IMG/VR virus record: IMGVR_UViG_3300009164_000071
Coordinates: 1,290-65,289 of that record
Length of the DNA stretch: 64,000 bases
Source: a virus
Lineage: Duplodnaviria > Caudoviricetes
Reading direction: 5' to 3' (one strand)
Position numbers and translations under genes: made by a program. The notes under the pieces are model-generated. The model was not told where the DNA came from and searched no databases. It worked only from the letters and a program-made list of their open reading frames with translations. This document shows positions 27,025 to 61,664 of this stretch, piece after piece (the stretch's first letter is position 1; each line of letters opens with the position of its first letter).

Positions 27025-27507
27025 TTAGGAACCCAACGCTATAGTCATTGCTAAATTAATTCCCTGAATATTATTTAAACCAGTAGACGATAATCCTGCA
27101 ACAACTCTAATAGTATCACCGGCGTTTCTGCCTTGAGTTAGTATAACCTGTGTACCATTACTTGCTATAAAATCTGATGATCCTAGAGCTATTCCATTGG
27201 CAAATACCTGTACAGTATTTACAGTATATCCTGTTGATATAGTAAACGCTGTTTGCCCTGCAGTAGCTGTAAATTCTTGAATAGCTGTTGGAATAACTTG
27301 TGCACCACCAGTATACAGGGCGCCACCAGCAGTTATTGATCCTACAGAAGATATTGTTGCGCCAGCACTGATATTTCCACTAGCCGCTAGTGTACTAGCA
27401 CTGGGTACAGCAATTCTGGTCCAGCTGTTAGTAGAGACAGTATACCGATAAGTTGCATTATTAACAACTGCGGTTTGGTTATTTGTGGGCGACGTTGGAA
27501 ATGCCAT
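27025..27507 (-). CDS. Short fibre connector protein
   Basis: N-terminal MAFPTSP..W module, ATAGQT.F...Y....VF.NG domain, hydrophobic end MTIALGS; TAAATA at 27533-27538. Confidence 0.75.
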   Translation of the reverse strand: MAFPTSPTNNQTAVVNNATYRYTVSTNSWTRIAVPSASTLAASGNISAGATISSVGSITAGGALYTGGAQVIPTAIQEFTATAGQTAFTISTGYTVNTVQVFANGIALGSSDFIASNGTQVILTQGRNAGDTIRVVAGLSSTGLNNIQGINLAMTIALGS

Positions 27508-27544
27508 TTTTTATCAAGATTCCTTTGTTGTGTATTTAGCTCGT

Positions 27545-30500
27545 TTATACAATAGTAAAACTTCCTGCGCCAGTAAATGTCAGTATTGTGTTAGATCCGT
27601 AAACAGCTGAACTTGGAGATCCTGTACTCGATACATATCGAGATGTTGGAATGCTGACTACAACTATTCCAGATCCGCCAGCATATCCGTTAACTAAATT
27701 GCTTCCACCACCACCGCCACCCCCAGTATTAGCAGTGCCTGCAGATCCTGCAACACCTCCACCTGAATTTTGAGCTCTTCCGGCGCCTCCGCCACCTTGT
27801 CCGCCTAAACCGGCAGCCTGCGTTAATCCGTCTGCTTGTACGCCACCTCCTCCGCCGCCGGCAAAATAGTAATTTCCGTAGCCGTCTGACACCCCAGAAG
27901 TCGATCCCGGAATTGGATTCAACAATCCTAGACCCCCGTCGCCGCCTTTTATACTGTCGATAACACCAACGGGCGTGCCTATGATACTACATGCTGATAT
28001 AGCACCAACTCCTCCCGGAATATCAATCTCATCAACTCGAATGTTAATATCGTTAGTAGGGCTTGTGCCACCAAATAGTGTACCGTCCCATAGAACTATA
28101 TCACCTACTACATAGTTAATACCACCCGAAGCGGTAGTTATACTAGTATAACTACCGGTAGCACCGTCTCGAACCACAGTTAATAGTGCATTAACTCCGG
28201 TACCTGTTGTTATTGTTTGCGGAGTGTTGCTGTAAGTTGCTCCGATATTAATATTTCCATTACCGCCTGCACTAGCCGCACCTCCACCTCCACCGCCTGC
28301 TCTCAGTGAATCAGTGCCTGCGGCTGTTGCATTACCTCCTGCATAACCTTGTAGAGATTGGCCAAGTCCACCCGCAACTCCTCGAGGGTTAGGTACAGAT
28401 GTTCCAGGGCCTCCTGTAAATCCACCGCCACCTCCACTACCACCTGTTTGTGCGGCATTATTAATTCCGTCACCTCCTAGTCCACCTCCAAATGCAGTCA
28501 ATGAAACAGAATTTGGTCCTGATATACTAGAATTCGTGCCGTTGCCTGTGGTTCTTGATGTTTGTCCTGCTTGTCCTCCTGCTCCGACACCTACTAAAAA
28601 CGTGCCTACATAAGCGTTAATAACACCTGTTATCAATCCCCCAGCGCCGCCGCCCCCTCCAACACTGTTTGATAGTAAGCTACGTGTGCCCCCTCCTCCG
28701 CCACCAGCAACTATTAAGAACATAACTGGAATATTACCTGTGTTAATATTATTAAACGGAGATATTCCTGTTGCTACTGTAAGAGCAGTAGGATTAGTTA
28801 TTGACAAAAAGTTAGAAGATACATCTGTGGTAGTATTCACTGCTGATTGGCAGGTTAACAGTATGGTATTTGTTGCACTAGTTAGTGGAAAAATAGGTGC
28901 TGAGAAATTGGCATTATACAAAGAAATATCTTTAATTATTCGAAGGTTAGATATATAACCATTAAATGTATTGGCCAAACTACCCGATCCCCAAGTGCTG
29001 GCATAGTTTGATCCTATGGATAGTCCGTTGTTGTTAGTTATTGGAGCTAGGGCCGTTGTTTGTGTAAAATTTAAAACGCCATTTAAGTATCCTCGATATA
29101 CTCCACCCGAACGTGACACTGCAATATGATACCATTGATTGACTACACATGATCCTAACCACCCTGCTGGGTTTCCTGCATCGCTGGTTCCAATTACATT
29201 GGTACTAGGGAATGCGCGACCTGCACCCCATAATATTCTCACTGCGCCATTACCTCCAGGGCCGCTAAAGGTATTAAATCCATCATTACTACCACCACCA
29301 CCACCGTATTCACCACCATTTTCTGCGCCTTGACCCCCACCATTGGCACCACCTGAACCACCTCTGCCACCAACATCTCCACTTACACCAGGTCCTCCAC
29401 TTGTACCTTGTCCCTGCAGGCCAACTCCACCTCCCCCACCTTGGCCATTATACCCTGTTCCTTGTATAAAACCACCACCCCCGCCACCGCCACTACCTGC
29501 GCCTGCATTAGGGCCAAATGTCCATCCTTGCCCGAGGCCACCGTCGCCAGAATAACCACCTGCACCACCGCCTGCTCCTAGACCACCTGATCCTGAGCCG
29601 CCGGCGCCGCCATTACCGCCACCATCACCTACAAAGTTGCCACCTGAAAAATTACCGCTTGCACTACCACCACCGCCTTTAACAGTGGCAGCACTGATAA
29701 AATAACTGTCGCCACCTGCAGTCGGTGACCGACCAGCTAACGGAATTCCGCCTTGTTGTTGGCCATTACCACCACCACCTACAACTACGGTATAAGTTTG
29801 ACCAGGTGTGACCGCGATGTTATTTTTCCATCCCAGCCCGCCACCTCCACCAGCCCCTGGAGATCCACCTGAGCCAACAGTGCCACCACCACCACCACCA
29901 CCGACGCAGACTACACAGACCGATGTGACCCCAGTAGGCACTGTCCAGCTATAGGTTCCGGGAGTGGTGAATGATATAGATCCAAATCCTGGAGTACCGC
30001 TGGCACTATAGCCGCCTATGTCAGTGACTGAATTGTTAGAACTTGCCGCAAAAACAAAAGAATTATTAAGTCTTGATATTTCATAGCTTGAAAGGGCGGC
30101 ACCTATGCCTCCTTTGTTGATCAACATACCAGTTCCGCTAACGCCTAATGTATATGCCCACAATTCGATGGTAAAATCACCGGTTAGATTTAATTTAGAA
30201 TCTGAAGGTAGTAATAAATTACTACTTGCAAAATATGCAGAGCCACCCTGGAATGGATTACTGGTTGACGGAACCACCGATCCTATGTTGTTTACTGTAG
30301 CATTGATACTTGAATTATCTGTTAAAAATCCATCAGTTGCATATAATGTGTTTAATAGCAGTCCTGTACTAGTTGACGAAGCTAAAGGATTACTAGGTGG
30401 TTGAAAAGTTATAGGTGTACCTATAGTTATGGATCCACTGGCAGTAAATGCGTATAACCGATTTCCAGCAACAGTTGTTGTTATAGGATTTCCTGATGTC

Positions 30501-32776
30501 ACTGCGGCTGGGTAAAGAGACGCTGAATAACTAATGATTGCTACACCAGAACCACCATTACCTGGATAGTTATAAGTGCCGTAGCCGCTAGAAGCACCAC
30601 CGCCACCACCTGTGTTGGTTAACCCGTGTGTACCTGTATTTGTACCGCCTGTTGTAATGCTAGAACTAGCGTTATATCCGCCACTGCCACCACCACCTTT
30701 ACCACCAGCTCCCCCTGGATACCCACTTCCTGATATTGCACTTGATCCTCCGCCACCGCCCGCAAGATAATAACTTCCGTTATATAGTTCTCCTATAGTA
30801 CTACCAGTAAATGGGTTTACTTTACCAATACCCCCATCTCCTGCGGCTGTACTAACCGTGACATCCATACCTTGTGCTCCAGCACCACCACCGCCTGCAC
30901 CTGATGTAGTTCCAACATTAGATCCTCCACGATTTCCTTGACTTTCAATTGCAGTGCCAGCACCGGGATTACTATTAACTCCATCATAGGCGGCGCCGCC
31001 GCCGCTTCCGCCCCAACCTCCTTTGGCCGTTATAGCACCTTGGTTGGCAAAACTACTGCCTCCACGACCGCCACCTACTGCTCTGGACGTTAAGAATGTC
31101 GATGCCGTACCACTTGTTATTGAATCTGCAGATTGAGTTATAACTCCCTGTCCTCCTGACCCAACCACAATTGGATAAGATGATCCGTAGGTTAACAGTC
31201 CAGTATCAATAAGATATCCACCTGCGCCACCGCCACCACCAGATCCACCGCCGTAGTCGCTGGTTAGATCTACATTTGTGCTAGGGAACGCCCGTGTTAT
31301 ACCTGTACTACCTGACCATAAAATACGAACCGCACCATTATATGCAACTCTATATTGATTACCGCTACTGCCATAACTTTGCCCTGATTGGCCACCGCCA
31401 TATAATCCTAATACTCCACCAGATCCTGGTCCACCGTTAGATGCGCCGTCAGCACCTTGACCGTATACGCCAACGCCACCGCCATAACCTATAGGACCAG
31501 GGTAAGAGCCATAGCCGCCGCCTCCACCACCACCGGATCCAGCACCAGCAGGTACACGTATACTGGCACCACCGCCACCATCGAACCAGCCGCCAGCTCC
31601 GCCAGAACCGGTATAACCACCAGCACCACCTCCACCATAAGCATATCCGCTGACAAACTGTTGACCACGGTAGCTTCTGCCGCCATTGCCTCCTCCGGTG
31701 CCTACGTATCCGCCACCATAACCCATAGTATCAGGGTAGTACCCCGCTTTGGCTGCCTTACCTCCAAAGCCTGCTACAGTAGTTGCATCAATAAAATAGC
31801 TGTCGCCACCATCAAACGGGGTTCCAAAATAATCTGTCGGTGTTGCAACACCCACAACTACATTGTATGTTTGTCCGGGAACTACTGTTATATTATTTTT
31901 CCAGCCTAACCCTCCACCTCCACCCCCACCATCTATACATCCGCCGGCACCGGCGCCAATACAGACTACACAAACTGAAGTGACGCCGGCAGGAGCTGTC
32001 CAACTACCTGAAGATGTAAAAAGCTGTGAACCAGGTTGGACGCCACCAACTGCTAGAGTAGTTCCAGGCGCGGGTTTGCCAGTTCCGCCCGCTCCGCCAC
32101 CTGCAACCAGTAAATAATTTACAGTGGCTGTTGGTACACTTCCACCATACTGCGCGGTGCCTTTAGTCACACGAATATTAGAAATATAACCAGTTATATA
32201 TGAACTGGCTATAGCATCCCCGGCTGCCCCAATATACCAATTACTTCCAACTCCGTTTAATGCTCCGGAAAACGTATAATTGCCGCTGGCCGTGCCATTT
32301 ATATACAAAGTTATAACACCGTTTAATCTAACCACAGCAAGGTGTGTCCATTGATTATAAGTTATAGGTATAGTACTAGAAATTACTGGAAATGCTACTC
32401 CGTTGATAGCAACTTGATATTTTGTAGTATCACCACTGCTATGTCCGGCAAATAAAGATAAACTACCTGCGGTATAAGAGGTATAATTTGAAAAAATGCA
32501 CGGTGTACTGTAATTTCTTGCAGTCAATAATGACCAACATTCTACGGTAAAGTCTCCAGTACCAAATTGCAAAGAACTATTAGTAGGTACGGTTAGATAA
32601 TTAGCGCCAAATTGCAGACTTCCCGATAAAATTCCTAGGGATAGACTACTTGAGCCGGCACGGGGCCAAGAAAAATTGTACCTAACATCATCTGCACTCC
32701 ATAACCCGTTAGGCTGAGCAAGAGATGTTATAAGGTTTCTAGGACCAATAATTCCGCCGTTTAGTCTGCTTCTCAT
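27545..32776 (-). CDS. Gly-rich / LamG (ConA-like) appendage protein, 1743 aa
   Basis: Two LamG domains (GDFT.E.W...W.H.A..R.....Y.NG...YISN.R) and four Gly-rich domains. Confidence 0.85.
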   Translation of the reverse strand: MRSRLNGGIIGPRNLITSLAQPNGLWSADDVRYNFSWPRAGSSSLSLGILSGSLQFGANYLTVPTNSSLQFGTGDFTVECWSLLTARNYSTPCIFSNYTSYTAGSLSLFAGHSSGDTTKYQVAINGVAFPVISSTIPITYNQWTHLAVVRLNGVITLYINGTASGNYTFSGALNGVGSNWYIGAAGDAIASSYITGYISNIRVTKGTAQYGGSVPTATVNYLLVAGGGAGGTGKPAPGTTLAVGGVQPGSQLFTSSGSWTAPAGVTSVCVVCIGAGAGGCIDGGGGGGGLGWKNNITVVPGQTYNVVVGVATPTDYFGTPFDGGDSYFIDATTVAGFGGKAAKAGYYPDTMGYGGGYVGTGGGNGGRSYRGQQFVSGYAYGGGGAGGYTGSGGAGGWFDGGGGASIRVPAGAGSGGGGGGGYGSYPGPIGYGGGVGVYGQGADGASNGGPGSGGVLGLYGGGQSGQSYGSSGNQYRVAYNGAVRILWSGSTGITRAFPSTNVDLTSDYGGGSGGGGGAGGYLIDTGLLTYGSSYPIVVGSGGQGVITQSADSITSGTASTFLTSRAVGGGRGGSSFANQGAITAKGGWGGSGGGAAYDGVNSNPGAGTAIESQGNRGGSNVGTTSGAGGGGAGAQGMDVTVSTAAGDGGIGKVNPFTGSTIGELYNGSYYLAGGGGGSSAISGSGYPGGAGGKGGGGSGGYNASSSITTGGTNTGTHGLTNTGGGGGASSGYGTYNYPGNGGSGVAIISYSASLYPAAVTSGNPITTTVAGNRLYAFTASGSITIGTPITFQPPSNPLASSTSTGLLLNTLYATDGFLTDNSSINATVNNIGSVVPSTSNPFQGGSAYFASSNLLLPSDSKLNLTGDFTIELWAYTLGVSGTGMLINKGGIGAALSSYEISRLNNSFVFAASSNNSVTDIGGYSASGTPGFGSISFTTPGTYSWTVPTGVTSVCVVCVGGGGGGGTVGSGGSPGAGGGGGLGWKNNIAVTPGQTYTVVVGGGGNGQQQGGIPLAGRSPTAGGDSYFISAATVKGGGGSASGNFSGGNFVGDGGGNGGAGGSGSGGLGAGGGAGGYSGDGGLGQGWTFGPNAGAGSGGGGGGGFIQGTGYNGQGGGGGVGLQGQGTSGGPGVSGDVGGRGGSGGANGGGQGAENGGEYGGGGGSNDGFNTFSGPGGNGAVRILWGAGRAFPSTNVIGTSDAGNPAGWLGSCVVNQWYHIAVSRSGGVYRGYLNGVLNFTQTTALAPITNNNGLSIGSNYASTWGSGSLANTFNGYISNLRIIKDISLYNANFSAPIFPLTSATNTILLTCQSAVNTTTDVSSNFLSITNPTALTVATGISPFNNINTGNIPVMFLIVAGGGGGGTRSLLSNSVGGGGGAGGLITGVINAYVGTFLVGVGAGGQAGQTSRTTGNGTNSSISGPNSVSLTAFGGGLGGDGINNAAQTGGSGGGGGFTGGPGTSVPNPRGVAGGLGQSLQGYAGGNATAAGTDSLRAGGGGGGAASAGGNGNINIGATYSNTPQTITTGTGVNALLTVVRDGATGSYTSITTASGGINYVVGDIVLWDGTLFGGTSPTNDINIRVDEIDIPGGVGAISACSIIGTPVGVIDSIKGGDGGLGLLNPIPGSTSGVSDGYGNYYFAGGGGGGVQADGLTQAAGLGGQGGGGAGRAQNSGGGVAGSAGTANTGGGGGGGSNLVNGYAGGSGIVVVSIPTSRYVSSTGSPSSAVYGSNTILTFTGAGSFTIV

Positions 32777-32780
32777 AATA

Positions 32781-33562: not shown

Positions 33563-33565
33563 AGG

Positions 33566-34357
33566 TTATCCTCCAAAGAACAGCGAAAATACTATCATTT
33601 TATTTGTCGATTGCGCAGTTATAGAAACTGCACTATATTCGTCTATCCAGTAATAAGACGTACCATCTGATGTCCATCTATACATAACATCAGTTGATGT
33701 GTTGTACCATATATCCCCAATACCTGGATTTGCAGGAGGAGTTGGTGATGATGTATTACGAGTGCCGCCACCAGTAATTTGACCACTGACTACAACATCA
33801 CCACCGATGCCAACTCCACCTTTGACCTGTAGGGCACCTGATGTAGTATTAAGTGAGTTTGTATTATTTAATACAACAAATGTAGAGGTAGTACCTGTAG
33901 TTGCAATACCACCTGCATATTGACCAATAGTTGCTGTGGTTATAATCTGGGCGCCCGCAACAAAACTAGTGGTATTGACATACAATGCTCCGCCAATACC
34001 AACACCACCGTTGACAATTAATGCGCCTGTGACAGTTGACACAGCCAGAGTGGTATCATTAATAGTGGTAGCACCTGTTATAAGGCCGCCTGCAAATACG
34101 CTTCCGCTGCCTACCAATGTTCCATTAGAATAGATAAGATCCGCATATAGTGTACCACTGATACCAGCACCACCGCGAACAATTAATGCACCTGTGCTAG
34201 TAGATACTGATGTACCTGTTCCACCTATAACCAGTGAAGATACTGTAGACGAATTTGTATAAACCCTAACCCATGAATTAGAAGCGGCCCTATATTGGTA
34301 GGTTATATTATTAACTACTGCTGTTGCGCCATTTGAGGGGAAACTTGGAAATGCCAT
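33566..34357 (-). CDS. Fibre connector protein
   Basis: MAFP..W module, three GAL.V.GG.GI repeats, GDIWY module, hydrophobic end SLFFGG. Confidence 0.8.
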   Translation of the reverse strand: MAFPSFPSNGATAVVNNITYQYRAASNSWVRVYTNSSTVSSLVIGGTGTSVSTSTGALIVRGGAGISGTLYADLIYSNGTLVGSGSVFAGGLITGATTINDTTLAVSTVTGALIVNGGVGIGGALYVNTTSFVAGAQIITTATIGQYAGGIATTGTTSTFVVLNNTNSLNTTSGALQVKGGVGIGGDVVVSGQITGGGTRNTSSPTPPANPGIGDIWYNTSTDVMYRWTSDGTSYYWIDEYSAVSITAQSTNKMIVFSLFFGG

Positions 34358-34368
34358 TTAATTGTCCT

Positions 34369-37300
34369 TTATGACCAATAACCTGCAACAGGTGAATTAG
34401 GTGAAATAATCTGATTAGTTGTACCAGGAATAACCACAGTGTATAGTGGTACAGCTTGTCCTAAAACTCTAACTCCGTTAAGTTGTACGTTCAGCATTAT
34501 TGGTCCTGTGTCTTTTATATTTCTAATGTAAACCGGATTTGGTATTCTATACGCTCTAAGTTTTGTAATAACATTTACTACAGTACTTCTAGTTAGAACA
34601 CGTGCCCCATTCAACTGTGTATTTAAAGTTTTTGGCCCAAGATCACTAAATCTACGTGCGATAGTAGGAATATGAACTCGATACACTATAGGTTTACGTA
34701 CAACATTAACAGGTCCAGCATAAACAGTTGCCGGAATTCCCTGACGATTGTAGAAAGTTTTTGCACCACCGTCATTTAAGCGTTTTACAATAGGTCCTGG
34801 ATATGGTATTGTATGCGGTATCATGTTGGCCTGCATGGTTGCAGTGGCAACATTTAGTGTTCTATTAAAAAACACAACATTTGTACTGTTAACTGTTATA
34901 CCAAGTTTTAGTGTTGGATTTACTTGTGCTAGCCCTGATACTAATCCTGCAGTTGTTAACTGAAATGTACCAACAGAAACACCGTAAGGAATACTAGGAT
35001 TAAATCGTGCTCTAACATTGGTGTCAATTAATACTGATGCACCTATGCCCGAGTAGCCTCTTATTTTAGGATTAACAATAACGCCGGTAGTTGTGGTTAT
35101 CTGTGTACTAGTCAGTGAGGTCACAAACGGTGTTAGCGTATTGGTATAATTAATCGTTCCATTTCTAGTTAATATAAAGTTATTAAAGCTAGAGTCTGCA
35201 AACTGGCCATTGTCAGTGGCAGTCAACGTTAGCGGACCGTTTCTAACAGTTAGTAAAAGTTGTGTGCTTGTACCTGTGGTCAACGGTGCAACAGGTGCGT
35301 TGGTTGATGCAGTATAGAAACCAACACCTCTACTGATACGTAGATTTGTTAAAGATCCTGACAGAAATGTACTGGCATCCTGTCCACGCCCAATCCAAAT
35401 TGCATTATTACCGGTTGAATAGTTAACGGCATCCGCGGCAGAATAATATACAACACCGTTGACTAAAATTCTTAAAGTACCGTTAACTTTACTATAAACT
35501 ACATGATACCATGTGTTGATAGCGGGTGTTATTCCACTGGTTGCTCTGTGTGCAGTACCATCGTGTAATGTAAAAGAGTTTGCAGGAGTACCCGCCGCGC
35601 CAAATACGCTAAAGTAAGCAGGTACAGCAGTTGCACTACCACGTAGATCTAAGATAGTTGTCTGTGCAGGTAGTGCAGTAAAGTATGTCCAGAACTCTAC
35701 AGTCCAATCTTGTACACCTAGAACCAAATTAGCATTACCGGTGAAGCTGAGGAAGTCTGTAGTTCCGTTAAATTGCAAACTACCAATGTTTAATGTATTG
35801 TAAACATAAGGTGTCGATGTAGACACCCATGTAGGTGTCCCAGCAAATGTTATTGCAGTATTATTAAGGCTGGTATCTCTGTAGGTTGTTGCAGATGTTT
35901 CAGTCTGTAATAAGAACTGTGTATTAACAATCGGGTATGGTGGTAATGTTGGTATAGCATTAAACAAGTTAGTGGTATACAAAGCAGTACCATTGATAAT
36001 ACGCATACTGGTTATAAAACCTTGGAATGGACTAGCTAGGTCACGTGAGTCAGCACCAATTCTTGCTGGACCAATTGACGAGAAGTTAACAGCATTAGTT
36101 ATAGTGATTGGATTAGTTAAAATATTAACGCCGTCTACAAATATACGAATATTATTGCTAACATCTCTTGTCACAGCTACATGGCGCCATGTGTTCAACA
36201 AATTAGGAACAATAACGTTTTGTAGTCCAAAAAGGTATGTAGGAGCTAGATAATATCCAGTTTGCATAACACTAATTGTAGTAGCACCAACATCAATTCT
36301 TAGTCCACCTGGGAAAGCACCTTGACTGTACAATGTACAAGCTGTGCTGGTAGTTAAATAAATCCAAGATTCAAATGTAAACTGTCCTGCTAGTTGCATT
36401 GCACCTGGATTAATAATAGTTAGATAATCAGTGTTGGTAGTAAACGGGTTGTTCTGACTGAATGTAGGTCCGCTAGCTGTGACACCAAATCCTAATGATC
36501 TGCTAACAACAAAACTACTTGTGCTAGAATCTACCAAATATGAAGTTGCAGAGGTGGCATTTAATAAGAATACTGTGCCAGTAGTTGCTAGTGATAGTGG
36601 TACCCTAGAAGGAGTAAACGCTGTTCCGCCTGGATATAATCCGTATCCTTTTAACACACGAATATTGTTAATATAACCCTGGAAGAAGTTTGCGGCAGTA
36701 TTTCTTGTGTCACCGGTATTGCCAATGATAAAGTCACTGCTAACACCGTAATCAGTGGCATCTGTATACGTCACACCAGTTTGAGTACCGTTGATGTACA
36801 TTCTAGTACTACCACTGTTTCTCGAAATAGCAAAATGATACCAGGTACTGCTGGTCAATGCACCAGTTATAATTCTTGGTACACCGCCTACATAATACGC
36901 ATAGGTGTTGACCGCAGTTTCTGACTTAAATGTAGGCTTGAGCTGGCTTGTACCAGCACTACTGGCTCTAAAATCAATGATACCTTGATTAACACCGGAT
37001 TGAATTAATGGATAGAACCAACCTTCGATGGTAAAGTCACCTGTACCAAATCCTAAATTGGTACTAGTTGACACTACAATAGCATCGTTAAGTGCATTGT
37101 TGAATAATAAACTACCGCCTGCGGCTGGACTAACAGGAATACCACTGAATCTTAAGCTACCGTTAACCAATGGATACACTATAGATGTTGCCGTCGATGT
37201 TGTTATGCTAGACTGTACTCGAATTGAGTTGTAAACACTTTCGCCAACGCTAAATCTCTCGTAGGTTGTCCTATTGATATTAGGTCTAGCTTCAGTTATA

Positions 37301-43428: not shown

Positions 43429-43443
43429 GCTATATAATCAGAG

Positions 43444-45327: not shown

Positions 45328-45366
45328 TTTATTCTCCTAAATTTCCTGTTAAATTTTTCATTAGAT
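45314..45366. repeat. 53-bp perfect direct repeat, copy 1 (gene junction)
   Basis: tgtactaaagccattttattctcctaaatttcctgttaaatttttcattagat is identical to 47150-47202. Confidence 0.95.
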
Positions 45367-47163: not shown

Positions 47164-47202
47164 TTTATTCTCCTAAATTTCCTGTTAAATTTTTCATTAG
47201 AT
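47150..47202. repeat. 53-bp perfect direct repeat, copy 2 (gene junction)
   Basis: Identical to 45314-45366. Confidence 0.95.
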
Positions 47203-49002: not shown

Positions 49003-49003
49003 T

Positions 49004-53323: not shown

Positions 53324-53392
53324 TGGTTCATTTTCCCCAAATTCTAACTATATTTAGCCCTTAGAGTAAAATGTTGGTAAACCGGTCTAGAA

Positions 53393-55897
53393 TTATATGT
53401 TGTTTAATAACGTTTTTACAAACAGCACTGTGGTAGTTCCTGTTGACTGCGGAGACATTGCTATTTGTACAGTGCCACTACTAACCACAGAAGTAAACGT
53501 ACCTACTGTAGTTCCCATTTTAATATCGCCAAACTGTATGCAATCACTGGTTATTCCGTTATGGATAACATTTAGCGTACATACATGGTAGCCTAGCGGG
53601 CTAGTCATTTGTATGGTATAGCTGGCACTGCGGAAACTTGCTGTTGAAAAACTATCTAAGATAATCTGCGAAGTTCCTGTTGTAGTATATACACCAGAAT
53701 CTGTTTGGTAGCTAGTCCCTGAAATTGTACCAGAGAACACACCGACAAAGTTTGTAGCATTTACAGTTCCACCAACACTCAATGATCCGCCAATGCCAAC
53801 ACCACCTGTGACCACTAACGCACCTGTTGTTGTGCTAGTTGAAGATGAAGTATTTGTTATTGATACAACATTATTAGTGGCTGAGCCTCTATTTGTTATA
53901 CTTTGTAATGTACTTGTATTCCAAACAGTTATTACGCCTGTACTAGTACTAATAGCAGTATCAGTACCTGCAAAGATACTTGTTTGATTAGAGTATTGGT
54001 TAATAGTAGCAGTGGTCAGTATCTGCTGATTACCTTGATATAAAGTGCCGCCTAGATATAAATCACCACCAATTCCAAGGCCGCCACCTATAGTTAATGC
54101 ACCTGTTGTTATGCTAGTTGAAGACGACGTGTTTGTTATCGATATGGCATTATTAGTAGAAGATCCTCTATTTGTTATACTCTGTAATGTACTTGTATTC
54201 CAAATAGTTATTGCGCCTGTGCTGGTGTTAACAGCAGTATCAGTTCCCGCAGATATAACTGTTGGAGTAAAACCTGTATATAGTCCAACAGTAGCGGTTG
54301 TTAGTATTTCTGCGCCACCAATAAATGACGTTTCCCCTAAATATAGTGCGCCACCGATGCCGACTCCACCGCGAACTTGTAAAGCACCTGTGTTGGTTGA
54401 TATAGAAGTTGCTGTATAGTTGATGGTCAAACTAGTAGAAGTAAACACTGCTCCTTGAGTTGACCAATACTGACCACCTGGTGCTATCTGAAGCTGATAA
54501 TTCTCACTATATATGGTATTGTTTGCGGCTCCGCCTACTATCCATACACGATCGCCAACAGTCCCGAAAGAAGCAACAGATCCGCTAACATCTGTTGCAA
54601 ATCTAACTTGTCCAGTTGAAGATATATTTGTAGCGGTTATTATGCCATCTACAAATACATTTCCACCAATGCCAACCCCACCAGCGACTTGTAGGGCACC
54701 CGAAGTGGCATTATGAACGCTTGCACTACTTGCTAACTTAATAGATCCAGTTTTAAATGTACCGTAGGTTGCGCTGGTAAATGTACCTGTGTTAGATTCA
54801 GCACCCGAATTATACCAATGTAGTTCTTTTGTAGTATTATCTAAAACTAGAGCCGCATTGGTATCAGTGCTAGCAGTATAGTAATGGAATCTAAATCCAA
54901 TATCTTTACCGTCATTGGATGTCCACTGGCTGTCTACTCCTCCGGGAGGTGCGTGAATTTCAATAAGATTATCAGTGTAAACAGTGTTTGTACTAAGAAC
55001 ATAGGTTGCTGTACCGTTAAATGTGACTACTCCACCTAATGTTAAATTACCTTTAAGTTCTAGATCAGTGCCATCAAATAGTAAATTATTTGTACTAGTT
55101 GCCAAGCCACCGCTGTTATATAATACTTGTCCGCTAGTTCCACCTACAGGTCCTGTAGGGCCAACAACCCCTTGTGGTCCTTCAATACCTTGAGGTCCTT
55201 GTGGTCCTTCAATACCTTGCGGTCCTTGAACGCCTTGTGGTCCTTCAATACCTTGCGGTCCTTGAGGTCCTTCCGGACCCATTTCGCCTTGAGGTCCTTG
55301 AGGTCCTTCAATGCCTTGTGGTCCTTGAGGTCCTTCCGGACCCATTTCGCCTTGAGGTCCTTGCACCCCTTGTGGTCCTTCAATGCCTTGAGGTCCTTGA
55401 GGTCCTTGCACCCCTTGTGGACCACTTGGTCCCAGATAAGCAAATTCTGCTATTGTTGCGGTGGTTATTATTTGTGATCCAGCAACAAAACTTATTTCAT
55501 TAACATATAGTGCGCCACCAATTCCCACGCCGCCGACAACAGTCAACGCACCCGTGTCAGTTGATGACGATACTGTAGCATTTGTAGTTTTGATTATGTC
55601 ATCAGTAGTGACCAATGTTGTTGTGACTGTAGTTAACTCAACGGTTAACTTTTGAGCAAAAATTTCCCCGCCAACATATAAATTTCCGCCAATTCCTGCC
55701 CCACCAGCAACAGTCAACGCACCAGAATTAGTTGAAGTAGAATTTGCAGTTCCTATAACATTAACTCGATTTGCAGTTAATGTATTAACACTGGTTAGGG
55801 CAACACGCACCCAAGCGGTCAGACTATCGGACCATCGATAGGATATATTATTAACTATTTCTATTTGTCCGTTAGCGGGCGATGAAGGAAACGACAT
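53393..55897 (-). CDS. Fibre protein with collagen segment (834 aa)
   Basis: MSFPSSP..W module, GPQ collagen tract, GAL.V.GG repeats, C-terminal FRSASY.IQ domain. Confidence 0.88.
55145..55432 (-). repeat. Collagen-coding tandem repeat (9-bp-based units)
   Basis: Repeated GGACCTCAA/GGACCACAA/GGTATTGAA units encoding (GPQ/GIE/GEM/GPE)n. Confidence 0.9.
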
Positions 55898-55907
55898 TCT
55901 CTAATCC

Positions 55908-56297
55908 TTAAGTTAGTTCAACCCAATTGGTTGTTTCTTCATTCCACACATAAGGCTTACCGTCAGTGGGCATGGCAACAGGAGGATTCCATAAACAAGT
56001 TTCCTCGTCTAGTATCCATGATGTGTAGGGTTGGGGAGGAATAAATGCATCACGTTGCAAATCATAGGTATACCCAATTCCTGCATAATTTTTACGTAGC
56101 GCAACACCGCCATCTGGCTGGCCGTCTGGTCCAAGATGAACACCGCCTTGTGTGTTGTAGCTAGTCTTAATCCATGTACCACCAATTAGATTTCGACAAA
56201 ACATTGCTCCTACTTCTTCAGTAGGTTCTTCGTTATTGTGTACTACAATAACCCTTAGAACAATATTATTTTTATCAATTTCTGCGTAATGTGCCAT
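55908..56297 (-). CDS. Conserved phage protein, putative fibre assembly chaperone
   Basis: MAHYAEID..N.V.RVIV, W..TSYN, RKNYAGIG.TYD, DAFIPP.PY.SW; Trp-rich end. Chaperone role is inference. Confidence 0.65.
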   Translation of the reverse strand: MAHYAEIDKNNIVLRVIVVHNNEEPTEEVGAMFCRNLIGGTWIKTSYNTQGGVHLGPDGQPDGGVALRKNYAGIGYTYDLQRDAFIPPQPYTSWILDEETCLWNPPVAMPTDGKPYVWNEETTNWVELT

Positions 56298-56309
56298 TTT
56301 ATTCCTTGA

Positions 56310-56633
56310 TCATCTAAAATTATATATTGGCCCAGACATGTCTATCCAATTGGTGTTCTCACCGTCAAAAGTATATCTAAAGACAATATCAAGAGTAGGG
56401 TGATACCAGATATCACCGGGAGTTGCATTTTGTGGAGCAGTTGATGTTGTGGTAGTTCTAATACTACCGCCGACTACGGTGCCGCCTATATTAACATCGC
56501 CAACGATGCCAACGCCACCTGAAACTAGGAGTGCACCTGTGTCAGTGCTGGTTGAAACGGTATCGCCTAGAACCGTAGCTGTGGTTGAGACCACAAGGCC
56601 ATGTTTGACCCTAAAATCATTATTAACTGCCAT
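56310..56633 (-). CDS. Minimal fibre connector (107 aa)
   Basis: ATG at 56633 gives MAVNNDFRVKHGL; one GAL.V.GG repeat; GDIWY module. Confidence 0.75.
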   Translation of the reverse strand: MAVNNDFRVKHGLVVSTTATVLGDTVSTSTDTGALLVSGGVGIVGDVNIGGTVVGGSIRTTTTSTAPQNATPGDIWYHPTLDIVFRYTFDGENTNWIDMSGPIYNFR

Positions 56634-56692
56634 TAGCTTCCCTTTCCACAAAACGGCTCTAAATTGTATTATGAATATTTATCAATTGTACA

Positions 56693-56728
56693 AAAACAAA
56701 TGGAGCCTTTCGAGCTCCATTTAGTTTT
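56693..56728 (-). terminator. Rho-independent terminator
   Basis: Minus strand AAATGGAGC-TCGAAAG-GCTCCATTT-GTTTTT after the stop of 56751..59861. Confidence 0.75.
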
Positions 56729-56750
56729 AAGACTGCGTTAAAGTTTTAAA

Positions 56751-59700
56751 TTATGCAGTTATACCTAGTCGGACAACTTTAATTGTCATAGCAGTTGCAC
56801 TATTTGGTGTAAACGTTAGTGTCACAATACCAGCTCCAATAGAAGCATCAAATGTTCCAAGTGATCCGTTGTTTGTATTAATTCCGTACTCACTTAGGTA
56901 TACGCTGGTACCTATCCAGAACATGCTTATTTCTGTGACATAAACACTGCCGCTGTCTATAATCTGTATTAGATACTTAGATGTTCTATACTCTGACGAA
57001 TTGTAGGTATCTAGAGACACTTGTCCCGAACCGCTGATTGCCGCGCTTGTATAGCTAGCTAATACAATGTCATTGCTGTAAATTGCTGGAACTACTTGAG
57101 AACTTACAACAGTGCCAATAGTTAATGCGTTGGTAAATGTTCCTCGTCCAGTGACTTTGATGTCATTAAACTCAGCGACTCCCGTAGAGTCTATTTTATT
57201 AGCGTAGATTGTACCTGTAGACCGGATGTCAACAAATGTACCAGTACTACCACTAATTGTATCAATGCCGGTTAAACTTGCGCCTTTTACGTAGATAGTT
57301 CCTTCAACATACAAGTCAGCATTAATAGTTGTGTCAGAATCAACAAACAGAGTTCCACCAATATTAACGGCGCCGCCAATACCAGCACCGCCTACAACTG
57401 TTAAAGCACCACTTGTTGTGCCAGTACTGGAAGTTGCACTATTGGAAACAATATTACCAGCCACTGTCCAGTTGCCAACACCACTTAGACTTGCTACTTC
57501 AGTTTCGGCACCATACCATTTAAACTTAAACGAGTCGCCGTATTCCGGAATGCTGGACCACATTGTGGCAGCATTAATACCCATAGCGTAATCAACTGTA
57601 GCACCAGTTAGTGAAGGATACAATACAAGTTTAGTACCTTCACTGCGGGTAGTAAATGCCGGAGCACCTGTACCTACAGCGGCCCAATCAATTCTATTGC
57701 TTGTGGCGCCGTTTAAATATACTTGGCTTTGTCCGCTAACTGCGCTACCTGCCGCAGTTGAAATCAATGTGCCACCTATTGTAGCAGTTGTGCCAACATA
57801 CAAGTCTTTGGCAATTTTAGTTCCGCCGGATACTTTTAATGCACCGTCGTCAACGCCACCGTTTGTAGCGGCAGTACCCGAAACATTAACTTTTGTTGTT
57901 GCTGTAAAAACTTCAGTTGTAATGTTTTTAGCATATAGTTGACTACCAGCAACATCGAATGTAAAATCTGCATTGTCAGTTAGTCTAAGGCTGCTATTAG
58001 CAAATGTGACACGGCCGGCGACTAAGCTTCTTAATCTTGCAGTATTAGCTTCAATGTATGTGTTGCTACTTAATTCCACAGTTCCTGTATTACTAAATTT
58101 AAATGTATCAGCTCCAACAGTTAGTGTTATACCGGTAGCATCAGCTGTGACATAATTTGTATTGCTATAATTTAATTTAACACTAGTGTCACTCCATAGA
58201 CCAATACTTTTCCCTGAGGCAGATGCAACTGCATTGTCGGAACCGTAAGTTCCGGAGTTGTTGCCGCCAGCACGGACATCAACACCGTCAACATGGAAAA
58301 TAAGATTGTCGTAATTATACAACAAGTGGTTTGTTAGTGTACTTGTACTAGTATTGAGTTGATACGGAATGTAGTACTTTTCACCACCACGTATGTTGGG
58401 TGCATTATTAGCAGACGCTAATACCCACTCAAGTGTGCCGTTGCTAGCATTATAAGCTAAAACTTGGTCTTGTGCTGTAGGGGCTGCAATGAACGCTGTA
58501 GTGTTTACCGCTGATTGATATGCAATCCTAAGATTGGCGCCGCCTGCTAAGTTTGTAGAAGTATTTGCAAAAGCAATACGGCCTTCAACCTGACTTAATG
58601 ATGGGTTCCAGGCTAAACTACTATCAACTAACTTGTGATCTGCATCAGAAAATACAATACGGTTTTCGTGTAAAGTAGTGACTTTAACATCTGCACCTTG
58701 TACCGTAGTTGACGCCGTGACATTAGTTGCGGAGAATGTTGTGCCATCCCAAGTTAAACTTGCGCTGTCAACTAAATTATGACCAGCATCAGAAAATACT
58801 AAACGTGTATTAGATAACGATCTAACATGCATTGTTTGAGCACTAACATCAACGCCTGCATATAAACTTAGACCAATACCAGCTCCGCCTGCTACCTGTA
58901 GAGCACCTGAAGTTGTATTTGATGCATCTGTCGTACTAGTTAATTCAGATGAAAGAGATTTTGTTCCTGCATAGGCAGAGCCTGAAAAAGATGTTGTCCC
59001 TTCAGCACCGTTTGCATAGAATGAAAATACACCCGTATCTTGCGTTAACACAAGTGCCGCATTTTTATCAGCACCGCCATTGTAATAGTGGAAACGTAAT
59101 CCAATGTCCTTGCCGTCTGTACTTGACCATGTTGCACCTACTCCGCCAGGAGGGGTGTGCAGTTCAAGAATGTTATCAGTGTAAACTGTGTTTGTAGAAT
59201 ATACGTATGTTGCAGGACCGTTAAATATCACATCGTTATTAAAGACTGCTGGTCCATTAACTGTTAAATTTTGACCAATACCAACACCGCCAGCTACATA
59301 TAATGCGTTGGTAGCAGTAGTAGAAGTGCTAGATACCGAACTGTTAACAATTAAGTTATCGCCAACGTATACTCCACCTGTGACTTTTAATGCTCCTGAG
59401 CCACCACCTGCGCTGGCAGCGGTAGTATTGTTTGTTATCTGTGTAATTCCGGCTACGTCTAACGTAGAACCAAAATCTACAGCACCGCTAACTGATAACT
59501 TATTTGATCCTGTGACAATAATTGCACCAGTAAATGTATTCAGTGCGCCTTCAAAATTACTGTTCTGACCTACATTCAGTGTACTTAATAATTTTGTAGC
59601 ACCAGTTGCTGTAAATTTTCCACCAACGGTTGCATCTAAACTAATGTAGGCATTATTACTTGCTATTACATCACCTAACAGATTAGTTTTTCCGTAGATT

Positions 59701-59861
59701 GTTGCAGTTGATCCAACTAATATGTCTTTAGCAAAACCCGCCCCACCGTTGACCTGTAGTGTACCAACGTTGTTGGTGCTAGTGGTTATCGGGCTTGAAG
59801 TCCCTTGTACATTAAGACCTGATTTTACAATAAAGTCTTGAGTGATTGATGTTAGTGCCAT
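56751..59861 (-). CDS. Long fibre protein (1036 aa)
   Basis: Starts MALTSITQDFIVKSGL; GAL.V.GG repeats; C-terminal YRTSKYLIQ domain. Confidence 0.85.
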   Translation of the reverse strand: MALTSITQDFIVKSGLNVQGTSSPITTSTNNVGTLQVNGGAGFAKDILVGSTATIYGKTNLLGDVIASNNAYISLDATVGGKFTATGATKLLSTLNVGQNSNFEGALNTFTGAIIVTGSNKLSVSGAVDFGSTLDVAGITQITNNTTAASAGGGSGALKVTGGVYVGDNLIVNSSVSSTSTTATNALYVAGGVGIGQNLTVNGPAVFNNDVIFNGPATYVYSTNTVYTDNILELHTPPGGVGATWSSTDGKDIGLRFHYYNGGADKNAALVLTQDTGVFSFYANGAEGTTSFSGSAYAGTKSLSSELTSTTDASNTTSGALQVAGGAGIGLSLYAGVDVSAQTMHVRSLSNTRLVFSDAGHNLVDSASLTWDGTTFSATNVTASTTVQGADVKVTTLHENRIVFSDADHKLVDSSLAWNPSLSQVEGRIAFANTSTNLAGGANLRIAYQSAVNTTAFIAAPTAQDQVLAYNASNGTLEWVLASANNAPNIRGGEKYYIPYQLNTSTSTLTNHLLYNYDNLIFHVDGVDVRAGGNNSGTYGSDNAVASASGKSIGLWSDTSVKLNYSNTNYVTADATGITLTVGADTFKFSNTGTVELSSNTYIEANTARLRSLVAGRVTFANSSLRLTDNADFTFDVAGSQLYAKNITTEVFTATTKVNVSGTAATNGGVDDGALKVSGGTKIAKDLYVGTTATIGGTLISTAAGSAVSGQSQVYLNGATSNRIDWAAVGTGAPAFTTRSEGTKLVLYPSLTGATVDYAMGINAATMWSSIPEYGDSFKFKWYGAETEVASLSGVGNWTVAGNIVSNSATSSTGTTSGALTVVGGAGIGGAVNIGGTLFVDSDTTINADLYVEGTIYVKGASLTGIDTISGSTGTFVDIRSTGTIYANKIDSTGVAEFNDIKVTGRGTFTNALTIGTVVSSQVVPAIYSNDIVLASYTSAAISGSGQVSLDTYNSSEYRTSKYLIQIIDSGSVYVTEISMFWIGTSVYLSEYGINTNNGSLGTFDASIGAGIVTLTFTPNSATAMTIKVVRLGITA

Positions 59862-59876
59862 TTTGTTTTCCTAATT

Positions 59877-60734
59877 TTACGTCGCCATTCCGGTGCGCAT
59901 CACGCTTATTACCTTATTTGAGGCCATGTACGGAGTAAAATATAGTCTAACTGTATTACTTTGTACATCGGCCGCAAACACTCCTAATTCCCCATTTGTT
60001 GTTAAAACCCCGTATTCTGTTGCAAATACTGTTCCTATGTTATCTACTAACAACAAGATTTCAATAACTTGAAACTTTGCTCCTGGGCCAGTATCATCAT
60101 CAATTTGTATAAGATACTTTGCCGCTCTAAATTCTAATACCGAATACGTGTCAACAACAACTGTCGCTGTGGTATTTATGCTGACCAGCGTAGAATCGAA
60201 GACTGTATCTGCTATTTTAATGCTTTCTGCATTAAGTCGACCACCAATTCCTACTCCACCTGTGACTACTAATGCTCCAGTTATAGTTGATACTGAAGTA
60301 GTAGTATTTGATATATATAGGGCTTGATTGGTAGTTGCACCACGCACTGTCAGTGATTGCAAGGTTGAAGTATTGTTTATTGTTAAAACACCAGTGCTGG
60401 TATTAGCTACAATACTAATGTCTACTCCAGGAAGTACATAAGTTCCTAGACTAGAAGTAGTTAAAATTGACCTACCTTGTTGCGTTATTGAGCCACCGAC
60501 ATTTAAATCTCTTCCAATTCCAACGCCTCCGGTGACTACTACAGCGCCTGAAGTAGTTGATGTTGAATTAGTTGAAGTAGATACAAATAATTGTTGTGTT
60601 GCTGTTATAACAGCACTGATCACCCCGCCACTTATTGCAGGTCTTACCCACGCATATCCATTCCAATTGTATGTCACTGATCCAATGACAACTGTTTGGT
60701 TAGGCGTTGGGTTTGTCGGAAATAATGTTGCCAT
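59877..60734 (-). CDS. Fibre connector protein (285 aa)
   Basis: MATLFPTNP..W module; C-terminal FRAAKYLIQ domain. Confidence 0.8.
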   Translation of the reverse strand: MATLFPTNPTPNQTVVIGSVTYNWNGYAWVRPAISGGVISAVITATQQLFVSTSTNSTSTTSGAVVVTGGVGIGRDLNVGGSITQQGRSILTTSSLGTYVLPGVDISIVANTSTGVLTINNTSTLQSLTVRGATTNQALYISNTTTSVSTITGALVVTGGVGIGGRLNAESIKIADTVFDSTLVSINTTATVVVDTYSVLEFRAAKYLIQIDDDTGPGAKFQVIEILLLVDNIGTVFATEYGVLTTNGELGVFAADVQSNTVRLYFTPYMASNKVISVMRTGMAT

Positions 60735-60746
60735 GTTCTTTTCTCT

Positions 60747-61664
60747 TTATGCTAAGGCAGTAAATTGTATCCATACAGTACTAGTACCGTCTTGTACATA
60801 TTGTAGGGCCGCACCTATACTAGGAATAATCCAAACTTCTCCTACCTTAGGGTCAGTTGGTTCGACACCAGGAGGGTCTCCAAAATATACATTAGGGCTA
60901 TACAATAATCCGCCTAAATTACTATTACCGTCTGCACTATGTACACTTCCTCGAGTTCCTATACCACCGTAGACAGTCAAGGCGCCGGTAGTAGTTGAAG
61001 TAGATACAGTACTACTTGTTATTGCCATGACAGGCACCGATAAAGTTCCTGTTGGATTATTATAATTAAACGAATAACTGCTACTAGCAGTGGTATATTC
61101 CCCAATTTGTTTAGTCATCATGGGATAATATATGCTAGACGACGTTAAACTAACAAATAAATTATCTGAATTAGTTGCGGTCGTAGCACGACTGGCTGAG
61201 AATGATCCCACTGACAGCCACGCAGGAGCGGTTCCGGTAGATACTAGAACATACCCGCTAGTTGAAATTCCTAGAAAAGTTGTTCTTCCTGCCGCAGTCT
61301 GATAAGGTATACTTCCTTGGGCGCCGCCTGTTATATTAGTTGATGTGCTAACAGTTCCGGTAATAGTATTTGTTGCAGTCATTGCACCTGTTAGATACAA
61401 ATCTCCTCTAATAGATACCACAGCCGATCCTGTTGTAGCAATAACAATATTCTGTGATGCAACTTGATTTGATATTGTTCCACTGGTAAACAGTAAATTA
61501 CCTAAACTTGAACTGTAAGTAGCGGTTCTAGTACTGTCAACAATGAGAGTATAACCAGTAGCAGTGGTAGCAGTTGGAGGGAAACTAGGTTGAGCAGTGC
61601 TCAACTTGATAAAAGTTCCGCTACCGTATGGTCTAAGTTGTGATCCGCTTAATAAACTAGGCAT
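60747..61664 (-). CDS. Fibre protein (305 aa)
   Basis: GG..GSIPYQ and GALTV.GG motifs; C-terminal P..GEVW...WIQ module. Confidence 0.8.
   Translation of the reverse strand: MPSLLSGSQLRPYGSGTFIKLSTAQPSFPPTATTATGYTLIVDSTRTATYSSSLGNLLFTSGTISNQVASQNIVIATTGSAVVSIRGDLYLTGAMTATNTITGTVSTSTNITGGAQGSIPYQTAAGRTTFLGISTSGYVLVSTGTAPAWLSVGSFSASRATTATNSDNLFVSLTSSSIYYPMMTKQIGEYTTASSSYSFNYNNPTGTLSVPVMAITSSTVSTSTTTGALTVYGGIGTRGSVHSADGNSNLGGLLYSPNVYFGDPPGVEPTDPKVGEVWIIPSIGAALQYVQDGTSTVWIQFTALA

Follow-up and report, generated by a model that had tools for sequence, protein, structure and literature searches.

Two small modules, here termed A and B, alternate along the fibre genes of a T4-like cyanomyophage, and most likely they clip separately made fibre pieces together. 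Both lie within the window, which is the whole 64,000-nucleotide stretch of viral DNA that was analysed and which is the block of baseplate and fibre genes of such a phage. The reading we favour, and consider probable, is a plug-and-socket joint of A on B between trimeric fibre proteins, class-2 pairs included. That the modules are complementary docking domains had been proposed in the original prediction, which was made from the sequence alone. For p305 and p285, direct docking of A on B is well supported by three independent lines of evidence, namely the split and fused architectures of relatives, a model of the complex, and covariation. For the other three pairs we infer docking from covariation and from the matching numbers of A and B copies in relatives, and the class-2 pairs would dock by analogy with p305 and p285.

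T4-like cyanophages, both marine and freshwater, encode numerous "virion structural proteins", some giant and others small, as parts of the baseplate and fibres. With a plug-and-socket code that can be recognised, one could tell from the genome which fibre pieces join and account for the splitting, fusion and exchange of fibre genes; the module pair would also be a compact, portable connector with which to build chimeric receptor-binding fibres in laboratory phages. A literature search, judged by titles and abstract openings, returned no paper that deals with such modules or with fibre docking in T4-like cyanophages and no structure of a T4-like cyanophage baseplate.

Eight modules in the baseplate and fibre block

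Module profiles were built from nine relatives each, with window sequences excluded, and run over 857 stop-to-stop open reading frames in six frames. They detected four N-terminal A modules (E 4.5e-12 to 4.4e-8) and four B modules (E 1.9e-17 to 6e-14) and no more, the next scores being E 0.25 and 1.2, and window-only profiles returned the identical set. The order is B A B A B A B A, with all eight modules on the minus strand; strict B-first alternation is one of the 70 orders possible for four plus four. The positions, the 4:4 count and the strict alternation claimed by the original prediction were therefore borne out by the profiles. Its pattern for B, P..P..G[DE].W, describes three of the four copies and fails in p113, which has Ala at the second Pro position. 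The modules and the proteins that carry them are as follows.

60747-61664, minus strand: p305, with a conserved N-terminal domain, fibre repeats and a C-terminal class-1 B that ends W-I-Q-F-T-A-L-A-stop
60750-60884, minus strand: B module of p305 (socket, class 1), at the very C-terminus; E 6e-14
59877-60734, minus strand: p285, with an N-terminal class-1 A, a short fibre and, at the C-terminus, a domain like T4 gp9
60636-60734, minus strand: A module of p285 (plug), residues 1-33; E 4.5e-12
56310-56651, minus strand: p113, small, with an F-x-V-K-x-G-L motif at the N-terminus, a single fibre repeat and a B of class 2 (W-I-D)
56313-56459, minus strand: B module of p113 (class 2), C-terminal; E 4.4e-15
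53393-55897, minus strand: p834, with an N-terminal class-2 A (W-V-R) and a collagen-containing fibre
55799-55897, minus strand: A module of p834, class 2; E 1.7e-8
49004-53323, minus strand: p1439, a long collagen-containing fibre with a class-2 B (W-F-D)
49397-49537, minus strand: B module of p1439, with ~130 residues after the module; E 2.3e-15
33566-34357, minus strand: p263, with both modules in one protein
34259-34357, minus strand: A module of p263; E 1.5e-10
33617-33760, minus strand: B module of p263; E 1.9e-17
27025-27507, minus strand: p160, with an N-terminal class-2 A (W-T-R)
27409-27507, minus strand: A module of p160; E 4.4e-8

In p285, p834, p263 and p160, A occupies the first ~33 residues, and the position of B varies, not being C-terminal in every case. 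A and B represent two variants of a single beta-meander family of ~35-45 residues, with the common motif Pro-x-x-Pro-x-x-Gly followed by an aromatic strand, a Tyr strand and a Trp strand. The two can be aligned in register, and G-D-x-[YFW] is also present in A of relatives, which confirms the mutual likeness noted in the original prediction. Modules of the same class are very similar to each other. AF2 models show modules of 35-45 residues with three strands; in the B region the three-strand meander is accompanied by two short strands, and the three strands of B in p305 have a pLDDT of 89-94. Looser look-alikes that were sub-significant in the profiles lie in the sheath gene, a gp15-like gene and the open reading frame at 12246-13451.

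Pairing of p305 with p285

Eighty related loci were fetched with the neighbouring gp6-like protein. In 48 of them, a protein with a p305-type N-domain and a B module is followed by a protein with an A module and a p285-type C-domain, including one locus (L029) whose contig ends within the A protein, upstream of the C-domain. Ten loci encode a single protein of 584-646 aa that has both end domains and neither module. In five complete loci, B lies inside a protein of 1247-1363 aa and the next gene starts with A, and the remaining 17 are truncated where the contig or locus stops. Among the loci complete across the p305-p285 region, there was no case of B without A or of A without B. Across 39 distinct pairs and the window, B ends 0-4 residues short of the stop, a spacer of 4-23 nt separates the two genes, and the next gene starts with A. 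The fused state requires at least two changes on a quick tree built from the neighbouring protein. A candidate second case of split versus fused genes, involving a p1036-like protein at the second B-A pair of relative G010, was rejected because the 964-aa A-bearing protein lacks a p285-type C-domain.

Jointly, p305 and p285 make what relatives encode as a single gp9-like protein. The C-terminal domain of p285 (AF2 pLDDT 94-97) matches T4 gp9 (1qex_A) by Foldseek at E 3.8e-6 with prob 1.00 over 114 columns, and p285 reaches the Pfam family T4_gp9_10_C at E 5.8e-4 with 20.6 bits, under the cut-off of 25. As in p285, the gp9-type domain of T4 gp9 stands at the very C-terminus; however, T4 gp9 is one protein, whereas here two proteins are joined by B and A. 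Pfam found no T4_gp9_10_N domain in p305, p285 or the fused relatives.

Structure prediction of module heteromers had been put forward as a check on docking, and it came out in favour for p305 and p285, the sole pair modelled. Three copies of the last 80 aa of p305 were modelled with three copies of the first 90 aa of p285, each with a 40-row alignment. The three runs gave ipSAE values of 0.75, 0.80 and 0.81 and the best of three controls gave 0.00; ipSAE is the model's own confidence, and this 3+3 set-up with its own alignments differs from the tool's calibration, in which 58 of the 80 solved complexes reached the mark, as did 2 of the 110 mismatched pairs. At least 92% of contacts were common to the runs, and partner pLDDT was at least 81. 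In the model, the p305 side of the interface is formed by its B module and the p285 side includes residues 1-5, 17-22 and 27-31 of its A module, and invariant residues of both partners lie within it (W53, D67, W73 and Q75 of B; F5 and W29 of A).

Covariation was assessed across 52 distinct consecutive B-then-A pairs. A B module with W-x-D is always followed by an A module with W-x-R (12/12), whereas B with W-x-Q pairs with A having I, V, K or others, R occurring in one of these 40 pairs. The D/R-varying positions, B 75 and A 31, are in contact in the complex model. Within class 1 (40 pairs), the strongest inter-protein covariation is that of B62-A30, two positions that also touch in the model and that compensate each other in size, Tyr occurring with Ala in 7/7. 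Enrichment of class-1 covariation at the interface is weak, with 6 of the 15 top pairs there versus ~3 expected. Because they are drawn from related sequences, both the covariation and the agreement in copy number may partly reflect joint inheritance.

In the proposed joint, B, the long form that is internal or C-terminal, would be the socket, and A, the short form that is always on a free N-terminus, would be the plug. Three A modules of one trimer would seat on three B modules of another, with the last A strand (A-W-V-R in p285) edge-to-edge with the last B strand (V-W-I-Q in p305) and the first A residues (M..F-P) packed on the D-G turn of B, such that separately encoded fibre segments would be joined non-covalently. 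By analogy, the B of p113 would receive p834, that of p1439 would receive p263, and that of p263 would receive p160; p263, which bears both modules, could be an adaptor within a chain. We infer only from gene order which class-2 A would bind which class-2 B.

Relatives, the wider family and alternative accounts

In whole records or loci of relatives, A and B occur at 1:1, 2:2 or 3:3 and alternate. The fibre-strand modules read BABABA in one relative (G005) and BABA in four others (G001, G007, G008 and G010), and the BA order is found in at least nine further whole records. Two loci, L003 and L004, encode a p113-like protein without B and then no further A, and in one related locus, at a contig end, the order is B A A. 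In the wider family, a profile search among 1.84 billion proteins returned 4309 representatives at E up to 0.001. Each of the best 150 database proteins carries 2-18 B modules; A, always N-terminal, occurs once in 30 of the 150 and is missing from the other 120, so B needs no A partner and the 1:1 ratio is peculiar to the lineage of the window. The equal counts expected in relatives thus held within this lineage and failed in the wider family. Searches of the region or of p263 against a phage collection by megablast, blastn and tblastn gave no match, and p285 matched there only a 555-aa fibre protein of S-SM2 with a gp9-like domain. S-SM2 and S-CAM3 are the nearest cultured phages, and neither the 30 kb of S-SM2 examined nor the homologous 49.5 kb of S-CAM3 contains a module.

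A more general possibility, which we advance tentatively, is that an ancient beta-meander trimer module was split into a homologous plug and socket that serve as a general, exchangeable fibre connector, with the Asp-Arg pair of class 2 keeping joints apart. A fibre gene could then be cut in two, or extended by a distal or side fibre, by placing B on one protein and A on the next, and the chains in the window phage would be baseplate-p305-p285, p113-p834 and p1439-p263-p160. If so, thousands of multi-B database fibre proteins could be multi-socket scaffolds.

The modules could alternatively be end caps only, that is, trimerisation or registration knots at free fibre ends and shafts that co-occur since each new end needs a cap, with the A proteins attached elsewhere. 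We consider this account unlikely, yet several observations favour it. Database relatives of B, with their 2-18 modules per protein, adjoin collagen repeats, and the best folds for the B region are trimerisation domains of collagen XVIII (9bnb_A, Z 4.7, rmsd 1.9 A, 48/57 residues, a weak match) and collagen XV (3n3f_B, Z 3.8), with Foldseek E 1.0-1.6. Those domains are likewise small trimerisers beside fibrous or collagen segments, and a fold of this kind fits a role in self-assembly, which is possible without docking; with Z below 5 and an identity of 9-13%, the match may be merely a common arrangement. No collagen XV/XVIII chain was found at E up to 10 in the A1 and A2 profile searches of PDB sequences, and we know of no case in which a second trimer docks on such a domain. 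Furthermore, hhalign sets the Pro-x-x-Pro-x-x-Gly start of the modules in register, though non-significantly, on that motif in the C-terminal trimerisation domain of T4 fibritin. End caps, however, offer no attachment for the C-domain, which is tied to the N-domain in fused relatives and must still be held in the split form. They also leave unexplained the class-wise D/R pairing and the B62-A30 compensation, the restriction of A to a free N-terminus, and the ipSAE of 0.80 versus 0.00.

It is also conceivable, but improbable, that A is a general N-terminal anchor to the baseplate or fibre on some other partner, such as gp9-like domains or the baseplate wedge, and that B is a structural bead, the equal counts having arisen by cassette duplication. 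Cassettes of a B gene and then an A gene do recur as units in relatives, and the similarity of same-class modules is as after duplication. Against this, type III loci have a first pair that is class 2 in both partners at once while the surrounding genes are unchanged, and an A-starting gene follows wherever B sits in its protein, whether at the C-terminus, at residues ~130-167 of ~1250-1360 or at residue ~1160 of 1460; the complex model also passes its controls. Read-through or frameshifting at p305-p285, which would place B and A in one chain and make the pairing a tandem repeat, was rejected, since the two frames agree in the window and in six of the first seven relatives but the frame relation across 44 distinct junctions is 21:12:11, 43 of the 44 stops are TAA, often with further stops behind them, a GAG-type ribosome-binding motif precedes the ATG in the spacer, and none of the best 150 database proteins has A downstream of B in one chain.

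Comparison with known fibre systems

Among the closest known parallels to the plug-and-socket joint are the XD modules of T4 gp10 (XD2/XD3) and of the CBA120 tailspikes TSP2 and TSP4, which are ~60-residue beta-jellyrolls that bind gp11 and gp12, or TSP1 and TSP2 (PMC8825819). They are trimeric modules that offer a face for the N-terminal part of another trimer in serial and branched assemblies; for p305 and p285, such binding is seen in the complex model and fits the split and fused architectures. A and B differ in having 35-45 residues and three strands, and in that the plug is a homologue of the socket, unlike in XD systems. A structural likeness to T4 gp10 D2/D3 and CBA120 XD domains, a comparison suggested in the original prediction, found no support. 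The Pfam families Gp10_D3 and T4_gp9_10_C, which T4 gp10 itself matches at E 7e-36 to 7e-48, gave no match at E up to 10 in the eight module fragments, and TSP4-N of CBA120 ranked 43rd by Foldseek against the B region (E 3.0, prob 0.11) and was absent from the 50 VIA rows for that region.

Other families were considered. The foldon of T4 fibritin shares the Pro-x-x-Pro-x-x-Gly start followed by an aromatic beta-hairpin, but it is shorter and has one hairpin. The C-terminal 30 residues of wac do align with the modules in register over 13-15 columns, but non-significantly (E 0.064 and 0.096, probability <1%), and the foldon was absent from fold searches with the B region. Beta-propeller blades were rejected as well: matches to Tectonin 2 (E 0.025 and 0.12) and Kelch_3 (18.4 bits versus a cut-off of 22, in one module fragment only) are weak, and here the modules occur singly within proteins, while in relatives fibre or collagen segments lie between them. 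No Pfam model detects the module copies of the window, DUF2793 included, and profile searches of the PDB gave no solved relative by sequence. Among database relatives, DUF2793 scores 30.8 bits on P0012 (cut-off 27), over 15 residues only, and 14.2 bits on P0133. Outside the modules, the C-terminal part of p160 is conserved in relative G005.

Alternating modules in the fibre block

The window lies in a record of 65,289 bases and derives from an uncultured T4-like cyanomyophage, because the closest cultured phages, Synechococcus phages S-CAM1 and S-CAM3, reach just 47-48% protein identity over a 1073-aa structural protein. All large genes from 19.7 to 64 kb lie on the minus strand and encode proteins of fibrous and baseplate type, with collagen repeats, Laminin_G_3 arrays and members of PHROG tail-fibre and baseplate-wedge families, and the remainder of the window carries terminase, portal, tail tube, a 1002-aa sheath protein and a gp15-type sheath stabiliser. 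The original prediction had placed in the fibre block four N-terminal modules (here A, the putative plug) and four P..P..G(D/E)xW modules (here B, the putative socket) in strict alternation. We built A and B profiles from nine relatives each, with the window sequence excluded, and ran them over 857 six-frame ORFs. At the predicted positions the A profile recovered its four modules with E 4.5e-12 to 4.4e-8 and the B profile its four with E 1.9e-17 to 6e-14. The next scores were E 0.25 and 1.2, and profiles made from the window only gave the same eight. Read along transcription they run B A B A B A B A, where 4+4 modules could be arranged in 70 ways, and this confirms the strict 4:4 alternation.

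Modules in the window, by carrier protein
60747-61664, minus strand: p305, B module
59877-60734, minus strand: p285, A module in the first ~33 residues
56310-56651, minus strand: p113, B module
53393-55897, minus strand: p834, A module in the first ~33 residues
49004-53323, minus strand: p1439, B module followed by ~130 further residues
33566-34357, minus strand: p263, A module in the first ~33 residues, and B module
27025-27507, minus strand: p160, A module in the first ~33 residues

From the motif P..P..G[DE].W put forward for B, p113 departs by an Ala at the second Pro. Looser copies below profile significance (Pro-x-x-Pro-x-x-Gly, then an aromatic strand) occur in the 1002-aa sheath protein (7361-10369), a 401-aa ORF (12246-13451) and the gp15-like protein (13453-14841), where the copy sits in a C-terminal extension; relatives' ORFs homologous to these genes gave partial profile matches. 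A and B align in register through Pro,x,x,Pro,x,x,Gly, the first strand, the Tyr strand and the Trp strand, with the first loop four residues shorter in A than in B, and G-D-x-[YFW] is usually present in A of relatives too. This alignment bears out the mutual resemblance that had been claimed, and A and B belong to one family.

Split and fused forms in relatives

An IMG/VR search with p285 returned seven loci, and in 7/7 a gene ending in B precedes a p285-like gene with an A-like N-terminus. With the gp6-like neighbour protein as a module-independent query we obtained 80 loci, whose fibre-strand patterns were BA (42), BABA (6), BAB (4), B (5), BAA (1) and nothing (22), and whose opposite strand held no module matches. 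The 80 loci were then re-sorted after profiles of the p305 N-terminal domain (p305N) and the p285 C-terminal domain (p285C) had been added.

State of the p305-p285 region in the 80 loci
48 loci: split, p305N through to B, then A through to p285C (L029 has its A protein truncated ahead of p285C)
10 loci: fused p305N+p285C, one 584-646-aa protein, neither module
5 loci: complete, B internal in a 1247-1363-aa p305N protein, next gene beginning with A
5 loci: internal-B p305N protein with an A-starting next gene, but cut
12 loci: cut before or inside the region

Among the loci that reach this region complete, none has one module without the other. The fused proteins, carried by L036 and L081 (9271-11208) and by L075, L077, L079, L082, L084, L088, L089 and L091, are natural unsplit versions of the p305 and p285 genes. 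In a quick maximum-likelihood tree built on the gp6-like protein, which kept 55 of 68 classified rows once duplicates and incompletely matching rows had been removed, the fused state requires at least two changes, and the fused row L081 falls within a starred clade whose other rows are split. At 39 distinct junctions and that of the window, 0-4 residues separate B from the stop codon and a spacer of 4-23 nt leads to the A-starting gene; the stop is TAA at 43 of 44 distinct junctions and TAG at one. The frame relation across the junction is 21:12:11, and read-through is therefore rejected as the explanation.

At its C-terminus p285 has a domain that matches T4 gp9 (1qex_A, E 3.8e-6, prob 1.00; Pfam T4_gp9_10_C at 20.6 bits, under cut-off). 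Taken as a pair, p305 and p285 thus resemble a gp9-type protein whose middle is long and fibrous, and so does the fused form. Similar C-terminal domains of ~100 residues occur in p285, p834 and p1036 (56751-59861), and the p285C profile matches the C-termini of relatives' 800-1300-aa p1036-like proteins. Among cultured phages the domain was found only in S-SM2 (L101, 13771-15435; profile E 9e-20), within a 555-aa "tail fiber protein" that lies between gp16 and gp17 and has no A or B module.

Twenty whole related records were also searched with a mixed A/B profile, and full-length matches on the fibre strand were tabulated.

Module order on the fibre strand of 20 related records
BABABA: G005
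BABA: G001, G007, G008, G010
BA: G006, G009, G011, G012, G014, G015, G017, G018, G019
Internal B, then A: G013
B only at the mixed-profile threshold: G002, G003, G004, G016
Nothing: G020 (a fused-type record)

In the four B-only records the next gene carries a divergent A, which the A profile or visual inspection revealed. Thirteen partial matches, to the first half of the profile only, fell in 340-678-aa ORFs mostly on the opposite strand; the downstream stretches of eight of the 20 records held no further modules, and two loci whose p113-like protein lacks B (L003, L004) have no later A. B may be C-terminal, or it may lie at residues 67-122 in proteins of 428-979 aa or at ~1110-1200 in those of 1277-1460 aa, and despite this varied placement the A-starting gene comes after it, sometimes with other genes between. 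Two loci are exceptions: L070 reads B A A, with its last protein cut where B seems to begin, and L041 stops after the second B.

A probable p305|p285 joint and two classes of pair

We modelled the C-terminal 80 residues of p305 together with the N-terminal 90 of p285, three copies of each and a 40-row alignment for each. Three runs gave ipSAE values of 0.75, 0.80 and 0.81, compared with 0.00 for the best of three controls, so that structure prediction of the heteromer, as originally proposed, favours the pair. The tool's pass mark, cleared by 58 of 80 solved complexes as against 2 of 110 mismatched pairs, is a rough guide for our own alignments and multi-copy jobs. At least 92% of contacts were common to all runs, and partner pLDDT was at least 81. 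The tightest modelled contacts join B 72-75 (V-W-I-Q) to A 27-31 (Y-A-W-V-R), A residues 1-5 lie against B residues 67-74, and the interface includes the invariant residues W53, D67, W73 and Q75 of B and F5 and W29 of A. A pass owed to memorised structures is unlikely because no solved relative of the modules was found by sequence.

The pairs fall into two classes. In class 1 (p305|p285), B ends W-x-Q and A carries W-x-[IVK...]; in class 2 (putative pairs p113+p834, p1439+p263 and p263+p160), B carries W-x-D, followed in most copies by x-[TS]-G-P, and A carries W-x-R. Both first-pair partners are class 2 in type III loci. Across 52 distinct consecutive B-then-A pairs, Asp in B was paired with Arg in A in 12 of 12 cases, and the 40 Gln pairs had I (19), V (10), K (8), R (1), G (1) or S (1) in A. 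These positions, B 75 and A 31, touch in the complex model. Within the 40 class 1 pairs, the top inter-protein covariation, B62-A30 (Tyr with Ala, 7/7), is also a modelled contact, and interface pairs make up 6 of the top 15 versus ~3 expected, a weak enrichment. Because all sequences are related, joint inheritance contributes to this covariation. We consider direct docking of A on B well supported and probable for p305|p285, and we infer docking of the three class 2 pairs as plausible, an evenly balanced case. Within class 2 each B may take the next A in gene order, and the intervening genes may be side branches.

Known docking systems, the wider family and neighbouring genes

In the AF2 models the B region of p305 has three antiparallel strands (mean pLDDT 88.6, pTM 0.70), and the A region of p285 has two strands and a bridge (pLDDT 78-87 over residues 1-30). 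The best VIA-align matches of the B region, each under the tool's informative level, were the trimerisation domains of collagen XVIII (Z 4.7, rmsd 1.9 A, 48 aligned) and collagen XV (Z 3.8) and a Geobacillus virus E2 protein N-terminus (Z 4.4). At its Pro-x-x-Pro-x-x-Gly start, the C-terminal domain of T4 fibritin can be aligned in register, without significance. Pfam detected nothing in the window modules, and one relative touches DUF2793 over 15 residues only.

Established cases of a trimeric fibre protein docking on another's trimeric module are T4 gp10, which takes gp11 and gp12, and the CBA120 tailspikes; there docking runs through ~60-residue beta-jellyroll XD domains (passages on these systems in PMC8825819). 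Set beside those passages, the window system would work similarly, trimer docked on trimer, but its module is smaller and of another kind, and its plug and socket are homologous to each other. For these reasons we keep the modules outside the XD family. Nor are they gp9/gp10-type domains, and the proposed likeness of the modules to T4 gp10 found no support. The best Foldseek match of the B region is not significant (E 0.63).

A profile of 13 B modules matched 4309 representative proteins at E <=0.001 among 1.84 billion. The best 150 of the 4309, a set that additive scoring skews to multi-copy proteins, all carry 2-18 B modules; 30 of them start with A, and none carries a second A or an A behind a B, although the start Met of the A profile favours N-terminal matches. 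Some examples start with A and continue with several B modules down the fibre, and in others B alternates with collagen repeats. B therefore also serves as a general bead in trimeric fibres, and equal A and B numbers are no rule of the family.

The proteins p1036, p113 and p1439 share an N-terminal motif, [DN]-F-x-V-K-x-G-L-x-V, which also starts p1036-like and p113-like proteins of relatives and may be another attachment module. Between p113 and p834, p129 (55908-56297) belongs to PHROG 7759, of unknown function (E 2e-43), and has repeated Pro and Trp motifs at its C-terminus. Three tandem paralogues (43444-49002; 600-627 aa, common start M-A-L-V-H-I-S), with no Pfam family and a single weak PHROG match of unknown function, separate p1439's B from p263's A. 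A 3019-aa protein (34369-43428) has 11 Laminin_G_3 stretches. A 1743-aa protein with LamG and glycine-rich (Gly_rich_2) domains (27545-32776) accounts for a G+C of 0.48-0.49 and strong negative GC skew at 28-32 kb. The 127-aa p127 (61677-62060; 47-61% identity across related loci) always lies between the giant gp6-like and p305-type proteins in every related locus reaching there, and in a group of loci at ~43% identity a second giant gp6-like paralogue (2446-4064 aa) follows it.
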